Assembly (NCBI GenBank): GCA_944363525.1
Contig: CALVUF010000003.1
Location: 42,306-106,305, forward strand
Length of the DNA: 64,000 nucleotides
Source: an uncultured Bacilli bacterium
GTDB taxonomy: Bacteria > Bacillota_I > Bacilli_A > RFN20 > CAG-826
Reading direction: 5' to 3'
The position numbers were made by a program, and so were the translations under genes. Each line of letters starts with the position of its first letter. The stretch's first letter is position 1. The notes below the pieces were generated by a model. It was not told the origin of the DNA, did no database searches, and saw nothing but the letters and a program-made list of their open reading frames with translations. Below are positions 16,362-16,843 of the stretch, one piece after another.

Positions 16362-16389
16362 TTGACCGACGGATAAAACCCCGTATTAT
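16362..16389 (+). promoter_or_regulatory. Sigma-A-type promoter (TTGACC - 16 nt - TATTAT) driving a small ORF plus tRNA-Leu
   Basis: Good hexamers and spacing. They are followed by a 5' stem-loop (CCCC GAAA GGGG, about 16397..16410) and an AAGGAG RBS. Confidence 0.55.
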
Positions 16390-16453
16390 TTCGCAACCCC
16401 CCGAAAGGGGTTAGTCAATTCGGTAGATCCGAAGAAAGGAGTTAAGAGTTTTT

Positions 16454-16609
16454 ATGTTCAATGATTTGTTGCTTAATACGATCGAACAGATGAGCGGGAA
16501 CGAGGGTTCCTCCGTTTCGACCTCGAATAAAAACGATTTCGAATCGAGCCTAGCCGAGTCCTATGGGCTCAACGCTATCTTCACCCGCGGCACCAGCCTC
16601 GATTTCTAA
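16454..16609 (+). CDS. Hypothetical 51-aa protein (MFNDLLLNTIEQMSGNEGSSVSTSNKNDFESSLAESYGLNAIFTRGTSLDF)
   Basis: ATG preceded by AAGGAG 12 nt upstream. It lies between the predicted promoter and tRNA-Leu, and below the 60-aa cutoff of the ORF track. Confidence 0.4.
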   Translation: MFNDLLLNTIEQMSGNEGSSVSTSNKNDFESSLAESYGLNAIFTRGTSLDF

Positions 16610-16687
16610 TTGATTTTGGGGCGGTCAATTTGCCCCTTCCTTCCCGCTTGCCTAAAGAGGATAATGGGCAAGCGGCGGAAGCCGTCT

Positions 16688-16772
16688 GCGTCAGTGGCGG
16701 AATTGGTATACGCGCATGACTTAGGATCATGTGGGCTCTCCCGTGCAGGTTCAAGTCCTGTCTGACGCACCA
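16688..16772 (+). tRNA. tRNA-Leu (anticodon TAG), type II tRNA with long variable arm, encoded CCA
   Basis: Acceptor stem GCGTCAG pairs perfectly with CTGACGC. Anticodon stem CATGA/TCATG has loop CTTAGGA. T-loop is GGTTCAAGTCC, discriminator A, then CCA. The sequence is very close to the E. coli/Bacillus tRNA-Leu scaffold (GCG..GTGGCGGAATTGGTA.ACGCGC). Confidence 0.9.
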
Positions 16773-16818
16773 AAAGAATATCGTGGTGAACCGCTTAATT
16801 CGGTTGGCCATTGAATAA

Positions 16819-16843
16819 AGCGCCTGAACTCCGGCGTTTTTTT
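16819..16843 (+). terminator. Rho-independent terminator after tRNA-Leu
   Basis: GC stem CGCC(TGAACTC)GGCG followed by T7. Confidence 0.6.

Follow-up and report, generated by a model that had tools for sequence, protein, structure and literature searches.

A conserved small-protein gene downstream of rarA in uncultured gut Bacilli and its probable read-through into tRNA-Leu(UAG) in one lineage

Introduction

A 51-codon open reading frame (ORF) located directly upstream of a tRNA-Leu(TAG) gene raises two questions: whether it encodes a genuine protein, and whether it is transcribed together with the tRNA. The pair lies in a 64,000 nt stretch of contig CALVUF010000003.1 (assembly GCA_944363525.1) from an uncultured Bacilli bacterium (CAG-826), here called the window. 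A previous sequence-only reading described a compact transcription unit in which the ORF could be a small protein, a regulatory leader or noise within a long tRNA leader. The analysis presented here is based on sequence, and all the relatives used for comparison are metagenome-assembled genomes.

Results and discussion

Features of the locus

The promoter, 5' stem-loop, Shine-Dalgarno (SD) sequence, 51-codon ORF, tRNA-Leu(TAG) and terminator listed in the sequence-only reading were all found, and the tRNA is indeed the only one in the 64 kb. The features of the locus and of its surroundings are the following:

7893-8651: short LacI-family regulator (Pfam), the only such regulator visible in the window
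15000-16268, plus strand: rarA/mgsA, AAA+ replication-associated recombination protein A, 422 aa (Pfam MgsA_C 5.5e-38, AAA_assoc_2, AAA, RuvB_N)
16335-16348, plus strand: predicted cre-like operator of the LacI/CcpA type, TGTAACCGCTTTCA, 13 nt 5' of the -35 and centred at about -54 from the putative transcription start site (TSS)
16362-16389, plus strand: SigA/sigma-70-type promoter TTGACC-16-TATTAT, 10 of 12 consensus positions, serving the small gene
about 16395-16412, plus strand: 5'-terminal stem-loop AACCCC-cgaaag-GGGGTT (folding), at the putative transcript start
16434-16441, plus strand: SD sequence GAAAGGAG, 12 nt before the ATG
16454-16609, plus strand: small-protein gene of 51 codons (51 aa, MFNDLLLNTIEQMSGNEGSSVSTSNKNDFESSLAESYGLNAIFTRGTSLDF), from the first start codon after an in-frame stop
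16618-16636, plus strand: hairpin GGGGCGG-tcaat-TTGCCCC followed by TTCCTTCC, a putative remnant of the small-gene intrinsic terminator with the T-tract gone
16637-16680, plus strand: strong 15-bp interrupted hairpin (CUUC...CCGCUUGCCUA / UGGGCAAGCGG...GAAG), with 7 nt between it and the tRNA 5' end
16688-16772, plus strand: tRNA-Leu(TAG), type II, CCA encoded (ARAGORN; Rfam RF00005, 59.3 bits)
16817-16850 (hairpin 16817-16840): intrinsic terminator with an 8-bp stem and T7 (scan and folding), ending the unit
16863-17249, minus strand: convergent membrane-protein gene, whose stop adjoins the terminator

The cre-like operator, the two hairpins of the spacer and the rarA gene immediately upstream were absent from the sequence-only reading. 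When the entire window was compared with Rfam at gathering thresholds, the tRNA was the sole match at the small-gene/tRNA locus, and with E values up to 10 no riboswitch, T-box or sRNA was found in 16200-16900, where only the tRNA matched.

Coding evidence for the 51-codon ORF

Comparison with relatives indicates that the ORF is a genuine protein gene, under purifying selection and conserved across the clade, so the small-protein option of the sequence-only reading was the right one. That reading had suggested looking for conservation with synonymous-site drift, and the ORF shows such a pattern: its dN/dS was 0.10-0.14 against relatives, and 12 of the 18 differences from one of them are located at third codon positions, while the other frames contain stops. 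Synonymous multi-base changes were also found (Ser AGC to TCT, Leu CTA to TTG), and amino-acid motifs are retained where the nucleotide sequence is unalignable.

The dS of the ORF was below that of rarA in both L009 (0.48 vs 1.49) and L008 (0.065 vs 0.70). An extra RNA-level constraint on the synonymous sites of the ORF was considered and dropped, because recombination or sampling explains the difference from rarA: the identity with L008 forms a mosaic across the region, including tracts of 99%, and the 89% identity of the L009 ORF is within the range of neighbouring coding windows.

The small-protein family

Of 42 related genomes from the Candidatus Alloenteromonas/Enteromonas clade, about 32 have a recognisable but unannotated homologue of 34-54 aa just 3' of rarA. 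These homologues share the core motif F-x-x-S-[LIV]-A-E-x-Y-G-x-N ... [DN]-F, and homologues in the same slot are 20-50% identical, with the F, S, A, E, Y and C-terminal F invariant. An HMM built from either subfamily recovered the other (E = 0.006-0.03 among 2,819 ORFs), and nearly all the top hits were ORFs 3' of rarA; the most divergent positional orthologues (e.g. L034, L023, L015 and L028) are tied to the family by synteny and upstream architecture, not by significant sequence scores. These comparisons indicate that the family is unannotated and restricted to uncultured gut and rumen Bacilli around Candidatus Alloenteromonas/Enteromonas.

Neither single sequences nor family alignments matched Pfam, NCBIfam, PDB or PADLOC. 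When 1.84 billion representatives were searched exhaustively with HMMER, only the close relatives P0001 and P0002 were recovered, plus P0003, a repetitive 731-aa protein whose match was judged spurious. The AlphaFold2 model, based on a 31-sequence alignment, contains helices at residues 2-14 and 25-47, with a mean pLDDT of 61, too weak for a fold search, and it offered no structural hint as to what the protein does. The JGI name of one homologue (P0021), 'DNA replication protein DnaD', is an unsupported automatic label, with no Pfam domain match.

Nine members of the NAWEYGNTGNF subfamily gave marginal matches (E about 1e-3 to 0.1) to the C-terminal 20 positions of phrog_38384, a small phage family of unknown function with a 54-residue profile, similar in size to the small protein; the window protein itself did not match this profile. 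No homologues were detected in phages by tblastn against INPHARED or by a pattern scan of IMG/VR, and a possible relation to phrog_38384 is kept as a lead. The analysis adds a small-protein family so far without a name in gene callers and databases, confined to one clade and having a conserved expression architecture.

Promoter and cre-like box

Transcription of the small gene would start at about 16396, as judged from the position of the -10 alone. A scan gave 4 promoter-like sites versus 3.1 expected and 2 terminator-like sites versus 5.3 expected, so that the promoter and terminator matches by themselves are not above chance; they become significant in the comparison with relatives, which shows their conservation. 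The -35 is conserved at 5/6 positions, the -10 at 6/6, the 5'UTR at 92-100% and the spacer before the tRNA at 100%. In contrast, the linker from the cre-like box to the -35 has only 31-38% identity, the promoter spacer is likewise diverged with the hexamers kept, and the segment from the rarA stop to the box is 47% identical with L009. The spacer of the equivalent promoters is 16 nt long in 24 of 30 loci and 17-18 nt long in the others. No terminator was detected between rarA and the small-gene promoter in a scan of 16269-16360.

The cre-like box TGTAACCGCTTTCA is an exact match to TGWAANCGNTNWCA, for which 0.06 matches are expected per window, and has the conserved G2, C7 and G8 of the 14-nt cre consensus; compared with the high-affinity consensus TGAAAGCGCTTTCA, it has 12 of the 14 positions in common. 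All 14 of its positions are conserved amid diverged flanks, and in about 20 of the 30 loci a box is found 11-14 nt from the -35. Both the cre consensus and the rule that a cre upstream of the -35 leads to activation come from published work (PMC3463425). Because the box lies upstream of the -35, this rule predicts that the small-gene promoter is most likely subject to catabolite-dependent activation. Repression instead of activation is possible, and the box may serve a LacI-family regulator other than CcpA. A second cre-like site is present in the window together with a LacI-family regulator, beside amylase and sugar-binding-protein genes.

The arrangement resembles that of the CcpA-activated promoters of Bacillus subtilis ackA, pta and ilvB, in that a 14-nt pseudo-palindrome fitting the cre consensus is located at a fixed distance upstream of the -35. 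The ackA cre is reportedly centred at -56.5, close to the approximate -54 of the window box. The difference is in the putative target: a small orphan protein, joined by a tRNA in the window lineage, takes the place of a carbon-overflow or amino-acid biosynthesis gene.

A C-run/G-run hairpin begins about 6 nt past the -10 in nearly all of the 30 loci, with covarying stems (CCCCCA/TGGGGG, CCCTG/CAGGG, TCCCC/GGGGA and CTCCC/GGGAG). In Firmicutes, 5'-terminal stem-loops stabilise mRNAs, for example in the aprE leader and ermC, and by analogy the leader hairpin is likely to be an mRNA 5'-end stabiliser. As in those leaders, it lies within a few nt of the putative 5' end, its structure is kept with covariation and a strong SD follows; the stabilising role is putative here, with the TSS of the small gene placed from the -10 position. 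The AGGAGG-type SD is kept in all the relatives, although the 12 nt between SD and ATG is a long spacing, which counts against the model favoured below. With its cre box, 5' stabiliser hairpin and strong SD, the small gene would be expected to be expressed abundantly and in dependence on carbon status.

The spacer and the tRNA-Leu gene

Among 42 related loci, 29 carry a tRNA-Leu(TAG) gene 3' of rarA and in the same orientation. In most relatives the small gene ends in its own terminator and the tRNA has its own promoter, and in some of them another gene lies between the two. A qualifying terminator, defined as a hairpin with 5 or more T in the 8 nt after it, was found at the same place in L011, L015, L017, L018, L022, L023, L028, L034 and L044, whereas by the same scan criteria the ORF-tRNA spacer of the window, L008 and L009 has no hairpin with a qualifying T-run. 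The 16618-16636 hairpin of the window folds at -10.5 kcal/mol, but its tail TTCCTTCC has 4 T in 8 nt and thus fails the criterion that the relatives pass. This hairpin is expected to be leaky or non-functional as a terminator, and with its UUCCUUCC tail it could terminate part of the transcripts.

The promoter of the tRNA is altered in the same three sequences. Relatives have TTGCCT-16-GATAAT (L011 and L061, the latter an extra locus of the L011 type recovered when metagenomes were scanned for the 5' half of the tRNA) or other promoters with 9-11 of 12 matches and spacers of 16-18 nt. The best promoter-like match in the spacer of the window, L008 and L009 is TTCCTT-17-GATAAT, with 7 of 12 positions, which could be a weak promoter that retains the -10-like GATAAT. 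The apparent former hexamers TTGCCT and GATAAT are now 6 nt apart, within the arms and loop of the 16637-16680 hairpin. The spacer, 78 nt long, is 100% conserved among these three sequences and folds at -34.3 kcal/mol (z = -2.9). Downstream of the tRNA, the terminator at 16817-16850 is 88% conserved in L009, and may act in both directions, since the stop of the convergent gene abuts it.

Is the small gene co-transcribed with the tRNA?

The sequence-only reading placed ORF and tRNA in one transcription unit. For the window lineage this is probable, because the spacer is devoid of a canonical terminator and promoter whereas the relatives have both; it does not extend to most relatives, in which the ORF is independent and terminated. 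We therefore favour, with fair confidence, a real small gene with a cre-tuned promoter and read-through into tRNA-Leu as a derived co-transcript.

According to this model, transcription would start at the SigA-type promoter (16362-16389). A regulator of the LacI/CcpA type, occupying the cre-like box 13 nt 5' of the -35, would tune this promoter, most likely as an activator. The mRNA would open with the conserved 5' stem-loop, a probable shield against 5'-end decay, and the strong SD. In the ancestral state, apparently still found in most relatives, the mRNA would stop at its own intrinsic terminator and tRNA-Leu(UAG) would be expressed from its own promoter. Deletion of the terminator T-tract and collapse of the tRNA promoter spacer in the window lineage would let RNA polymerase read into the tRNA and stop at 16817-16850. 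RNase P cleavage at 16688 would then free the tRNA, and the 3' end of the remaining small-gene mRNA would be protected by the 16637-16680 hairpin close to it. The gene for RNase P RNA is located in the same window (51256-51575; Rfam search).

Two separate units could also be present in the window, with the small-gene mRNA ending at the 16618-16636 hairpin and the tRNA transcribed from a non-canonical promoter formed by GATAAT (16660-16665) and TTCCTT as -35. This would keep the ancestral arrangement of most relatives, the stem of the hairpin is GC-rich and stable, and GATAAT lies 22 nt 5' of the tRNA, comparable to the distances in L028 (22 nt) and L011 (18 nt). We regard it as unlikely, since the hairpin tail is poor in T and the L009 variant has no qualifying hairpin, the -35 fits at only 2 of 6 positions with no TG extension, and GATAAT sits in the loop of a very stable hairpin, whereas one would normally expect a strong promoter for a tRNA gene present in a single copy.

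A regulatory leader peptide, whose translation would sense the availability of Leu-tRNA and control read-through into tRNA-Leu, is very improbable. In the window peptide, codons 5-7 do form an LLL run and codon 33 is its one CTA, and the tRNA directly downstream of the ORF reads CUA/CUG, but neither the run nor the CTA is conserved: the CTA is TTG in L009, and homologues have 0-6 Leu at unrelated positions, without enrichment in CTA/CTG and with none at all in L021. Conservation is instead concentrated on the C-terminal peptide motif (dN/dS about 0.1), outside any regulatory codons, and the ORF of relatives is closed by a terminator of its own, at times with another gene before the tRNA. The coupling of tRNA-Leu processing to translation put forward in the sequence-only reading finds no conserved Leu codon, CUA/CUG codon or Leu run to act through.

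A non-coding region, either a long tRNA leader or an sRNA, whose ORF is a chance frame conserved for RNA reasons, is hardly credible, and the coding evidence refutes the idea of noise. It is true that the conservation of the 5'UTR and of the spacer equals or exceeds that of the ORF, and that the transcript folds somewhat better than shuffled sequences (z = -2.5). However, the codon-periodic substitutions and low dN/dS (about 0.1) are seen only in the annotated frame, the amino-acid motifs outlast nucleotide alignability, strong SD sequences are conserved and no Rfam family matches the region.

Comparison with secG-leuU

A small ORF upstream of a tRNA had been called unusual, which was overstated: in Escherichia coli the small-protein mRNA of secG is co-transcribed with a tRNA-Leu, leuU, and separated from it by RNase P, and the secG mRNA is gone within 30 s of cleavage (Mohanty and Kushner 2008, PMC2241853). 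In both loci the gene for a small protein precedes a lone tRNA-Leu gene and one Rho-independent terminator stands at the distal end, and an RNase P cut at the tRNA 5' end would separate mRNA from tRNA. However, the window encodes an orphan 51-aa soluble protein and not SecG, its tRNA isoacceptor (UAG anticodon) is unrelated to the E. coli pair, and it has a strong hairpin just 5' of the RNase P site that may stabilise the mRNA. Comparative data also suggest that the window arrangement is a recent fusion of two once-independent units, with co-transcription predicted from sequence. A firmicute host would use RNase J/Y-type decay and not RNase E.

The comparison between lineages could thus be read as a stepwise record of unit fusion, in which the T-tract was lost, the promoter collapsed and the tRNA came under the promoter of a protein gene. 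The locus overturns no current understanding, and its value is for small-ORF annotation and gene regulation in uncultured gut Bacilli.

Association with rarA

The tightest genomic link of the small protein is rarA, its invariant upstream neighbour: all 6 protein-anchored look-ups placed the small ORF on the same strand as rarA, 75-185 nt 3' of it. The protein could serve RarA as a dedicated partner or modulator, for instance in competition with the C-terminal tail of SsbA, which loads RarA. Its cre-controlled expression would then tie replication-fork rescue to carbon status and growth rate in reduced-genome gut Bacilli and, in the window lineage, would also govern how much tRNA-Leu(UAG) is made. 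We give this proposal only a slim chance.

Two kinds of mimicry by the C-terminus were considered and rejected. A mimic of the SSB C-terminal tail (a ligand of RarA and the SSB interactome) needs an acidic stretch and then, as its last three residues, a hydrophobic one, Pro and Phe-COOH; no Pro is present, and a terminal Phe is not universal, as the window protein ends in ...TSLDF and others in ...GNF or ...GDSF, but the largest subfamily in ...GNFLYN. For beta-clamp-motif mimicry, the defining residues are missing or not conserved. No SSB gene was found in the window by a regex scan, the same scan that missed the LacI-family regulator found with Pfam at 7893-8651. The constant position beside rarA provides a testable lead to the function of the small protein.

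Layout of the locus and coding evidence

The region between rarA and the tRNA-Leu(TAG) gene contains a 51-codon ORF (here the small ORF) among the following features:

15000-16268: rarA/mgsA, the upstream gene (Pfam MgsA_C, 5.5e-38)
16362-16389, +: promoter-like site TTGACC-16-TATTAT (10/12 consensus positions)
Directly after the promoter, +: GC-rich stem-loop (from folding)
16434-16441, +: Shine-Dalgarno sequence GAAAGGAG (from sequence)
16454-16609, +: small ORF, 51 codons; the ATG is the first start codon past an in-frame stop
16688-16772, +: tRNA-Leu(TAG) (Rfam, 59.3 bits), the sole tRNA of the 64-kb window
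16817-16840, +: terminator, hairpin and T-run (terminator scan)

The promoter, stem-loop, Shine-Dalgarno sequence, ORF, only tRNA and terminator described in the sequence-only reading are thus all present on the + strand. Single-sequence promoter and terminator matches were not more frequent than in shuffled sequence, and their significance derives from the comparison with relatives.

Products of 51 aa, identical or 90-92% identical to that of the window, were called in metagenome contigs. Codon comparison of the window ORF with a roughly 90%-identical variant showed codon-periodic nucleotide differences (12/18 at third positions), including Ser AGC to TCT and Leu CTA to TTG, with a dS of 0.48 and a dN of 0.056 (dN/dS 0.12); the other two frames contained stops and gave ratios above 1. 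Judged by its substitutions, the ORF is a genuine small-protein gene. The sequence-only reading had listed this option and proposed conservation in relatives as a check; the third-position-biased change and the homologues found in the same slot bear it out. The same reading had also considered a regulatory leader. A leader peptide or attenuator was rejected, since neither the number nor the position nor the type of the Leu codons is conserved (CTA33 of the window is TTG in L009, a close variant of the locus, and the homologue in the related locus L021 has no Leu), and selection acts instead on the C-terminal motif of the peptide. A non-coding leader or sRNA was discarded on account of the codon-periodic substitutions and of protein conservation where the DNA cannot be aligned, and no Rfam family matched the locus as such. 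Noise in a long tRNA leader, the remaining option, is contradicted by the codon periodicity and the protein-level conservation. Synonymous change was apparently lower in the ORF than in rarA; extra synonymous-site constraint was not accepted, the deficit being explained by mosaic identity (recombination tracts) and small numbers.

A clade-restricted family of small proteins

A RarA probe retrieved 42 related loci from species-representative genomes (RarA identity 96-61%), all belonging to uncultured gut or rumen Bacilli, among them Candidatus Alloenteromonas pullistercoris and pullicola and Candidatus Enteromonas spp.; NCBI places the genus in Bacillota incertae sedis. In almost every locus a 34-54-aa ORF with a related core begins some 100 nt past the end of rarA. 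L010, L011/L047, L018, L021 and L022 have more distant homologues (48-53 aa) in this slot, with F29, S32, A34, E35, Y37 and the C-terminal F invariant. The core of the largest subfamily, named NAWEYGNTGNF from its C-terminal motif, is [RK]-[LF]-E-x-[FL]-[AG]-[ED]-x-[LIV]-x-E ... N-A-W-E-Y-G-N-T-G-N-F. Among 2,819 ORFs, an HMM of the window subfamily picked up this subfamily with E-values of 0.006-0.03; searching in the opposite direction gave a similar result, and the top-ranked sub-threshold matches were almost all ORFs downstream of rarA. A family member is present in about 32 of the 42 loci, a count in which the most divergent members (L034/35/40, L023, L015, L028 and L046) were included by synteny and upstream architecture, not by sequence statistics.

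The family had no match in Pfam, NCBIfam, PADLOC or PDB. Among 5.8 billion clustered proteins it comprises only a few dozen clusters, all unnamed or "hypothetical" except for one "DnaD" label, which was unsupported, and HMMER, run exhaustively against 1.84 billion representatives, returned close relatives only. What appears to be new is a family of small proteins, unannotated and restricted to one clade, whose promoter is conserved and putatively cre-controlled. The AlphaFold model is of low confidence (mean pLDDT 61) and shows two helices, 2-14 and 25-47. For nine members there was a marginal match to phrog_38384 (a phage family of 54 residues and unknown function) at its C-terminal 20 positions; this kinship could not be substantiated.

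The cre-like operator and promoter architecture

Comparison of the window with its close variants L008 and L009 showed the pattern of a classic phylogenetic footprint. The cre-like (LacI/CcpA-type) box TGTAACCGCTTTCA at 16335-16348 is identical at 14/14 positions, the linker from box to -35 is 31-38% identical, the -35 hexamer is kept at 5/6 and the -10 at 6/6 positions, and the 5'UTR is 92-100% identical; between the rarA stop and the box, identity to L009 is 47%. The box matches the cre pattern TGWAANCGNTNWCA exactly (0.06 matches expected per window), is the sole match in the window to the tighter pattern TGNAANCGNTTNCA, and agrees at 12/14 positions with the high-affinity B. subtilis consensus TGAAAGCGCTTTCA (PMC3463425). 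In the roughly 350 kb that make up the 42 loci, strict matches to cre occurred almost solely just past rarA. Thirty loci were compared and show a constant order of cre-like box (11-14 nt from the -35 in about 20/30), -35, promoter spacer (16 nt in 24/30) and -10, followed about 6 nt later by a C-run/G-run hairpin with covarying stems, an AGGAGG Shine-Dalgarno and ATG. Hairpins that stabilise mRNA from the 5' terminus are known in Firmicutes, and the hairpin at the putative 5' end of the small-gene transcript resembles them.

A cre box placed upstream of the -35 leads to activation, ackA, pta and ilvB being examples (PMC3463425), and by this rule we infer catabolite activation of the small-gene promoter. 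The window encodes a short LacI-family regulator (7893-8651, 252 aa), adjoining genes for an alpha-amylase-family protein (6161-7855) and a sugar-binding protein (4683-6164). A second good cre-like site, TGTAAGCGCTTACT (10330-10343), precedes a promoter-like TTGATA-17-TAATAT by 7 nt; both are upstream of a minus-strand gene (8694-10247) without a Pfam family. Together, this regulator and site indicate that operators of the cre class are in use in the genome. Another exact match (5393-5406) is inside the sugar-binding-protein gene.

Relationship between the small gene and tRNA-Leu

A same-strand tRNA-Leu(TAG) lies downstream of rarA in 29/42 loci. In more distant relatives (for example L011, L015, L017, L018, L022, L023, L028, L034 and L044), the small gene has a canonical terminator of its own (hairpin and at least 5 T in 8 nt), and the relatives' tRNA has its own upstream promoter: TTGTCA-18-TATAAT in L023, TTGCCT-17-TATAAT in L028, GTTACA-17-TATAAT in L017 and TTGCCT-16-GATAAT in L011 and L061. 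A GNAT acetyltransferase gene is found downstream of the small ORF in L019, L020, L027, L049 and L055-L060, and between small ORF and tRNA-Leu where the tRNA was detected (L019, L020, L027 and L049), while in L013, L032, L033 and L036 the tRNA directly follows rarA without a small ORF. Because relatives show a terminator plus tRNA promoter, an intervening GNAT gene or a tRNA without the small ORF, the ancestral state is, on this comparison, two independent units.

The spacer of the window lineage (the window and L001-L009; 78 nt versus 106 nt) lacks the stretch that in L011 forms the 3' arm and T-tract of the terminator; GGGGCGG-tcaat-TTGCCCC and then TTCCTTCC are left. Only 6 nt now separate its TTGCCT and GATAAT hexamers, and no promoter-like combination in it exceeds 7/12. 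The spacer folds as two adjacent hairpins (-34.3 kcal/mol, z = -2.9), the second being a 15-bp interrupted stem (16637-16680) that stops 7 nt short of the tRNA 5' end and is 100% conserved in the window, L008 and L009; L010 keeps the equivalent hairpin in a different stem register. Since the tRNA needs a promoter and the nearest credible one is that of the small gene, both are probably co-transcribed in the window lineage. The sequence-only interpretation therefore stands for the genuine small protein and, with this probability, the co-transcript, and falls for the regulatory leader and noise. The terminator scan detected none after rarA, so read-through into the small gene is possible.

RNase P cleavage at 16688 would separate the small-gene mRNA from the tRNA, leaving the hairpin 16637-16680 as a 3' protector. 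In E. coli secG-leuU, RNase P likewise separates a small-protein mRNA from a downstream tRNA-Leu, and the released mRNA is degraded within 30 s (PMC2241853); unlike there, the hairpin here may prevent quick decay. The probable lineage-specific fusion to the tRNA gene is a variant of this known type of arrangement.

Genomic neighbourhood

The firmest clue to small-protein function is its genomic position after rarA. In 6/6 look-ups anchored on the small protein rather than RarA, rarA preceded it on the same strand at a distance of 75-185 nt; the genes before rarA and those past the small ORF were variable. In B. subtilis, SsbA loads RarA through its amphipathic C-terminal tail (PMC6101539), and in many proteins of the family the C-terminus is an acidic or Gly-rich segment plus Phe. 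SSB-tail mimicry was rejected: the signature D-D-D-[IL]-P-F-COOH is not matched and the largest subfamily ends in ...GNFLYN, so that a RarA partner is a reading of low probability. In the NAWEYGNTGNF subfamily, the GNAT gene (about 140-177 aa) is on the same strand about 70 nt past the small ORF, and its product is a possible functional partner in those genomes.

In L010 (6100-6560; Candidatus Alloenteromonas pullistercoris), after the small ORF and the same spacer hairpin as in the window, the window-type tRNA-Leu is truncated to its 5' half (GCCAGTGGCGGAATTGGTATACGCGCATGACTTAGGA...). Unrelated sequence of about 300 nt comes next, and then a different tRNA-Leu(TAG), similar to the L022 type. 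The arrangement suggests that the tRNA gene was replaced; it may, for instance, be a scar left by an element integrated at the tRNA.

Identity between the window and L008 is mosaic (13900-14500 region): 99% over about 600 nt covering the 3' part of a VTT-domain gene and a thioesterase gene, 83-92% in adjoining segments and 58% at the rarA 5' end, suggesting recombination tracts between lineages. At 18279-19265, an AraC-family ORF has only 155 aa versus 398 aa for the ORF in the corresponding position of L001, and the next ORF is a short fragment that matches rhamnosidase C-terminal domains (annotation taken from L006, an identical locus). Both are upstream of rhaB- and rhaA-like genes and look like gene remnants of a rearrangement differing between close relatives.

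Within 16817-16862, the terminator of the tRNA unit is 13-46 nt from the stop of a convergent membrane-protein gene (16863-17249, minus strand); its hairpin, followed by TTTATT when read on the minus strand, may stop transcription in both directions. An FMN riboswitch (43359-43473, +; RF00050, 82.6 bits) overlaps the listed start of ORF 43397-44212. A class-B bacterial RNase P RNA gene (51256-51575; RF00011, 236 bits) fits a firmicute/Bacillota origin, and processing of the tRNA-Leu precursor would be expected to fall to RNase P with this RNA.
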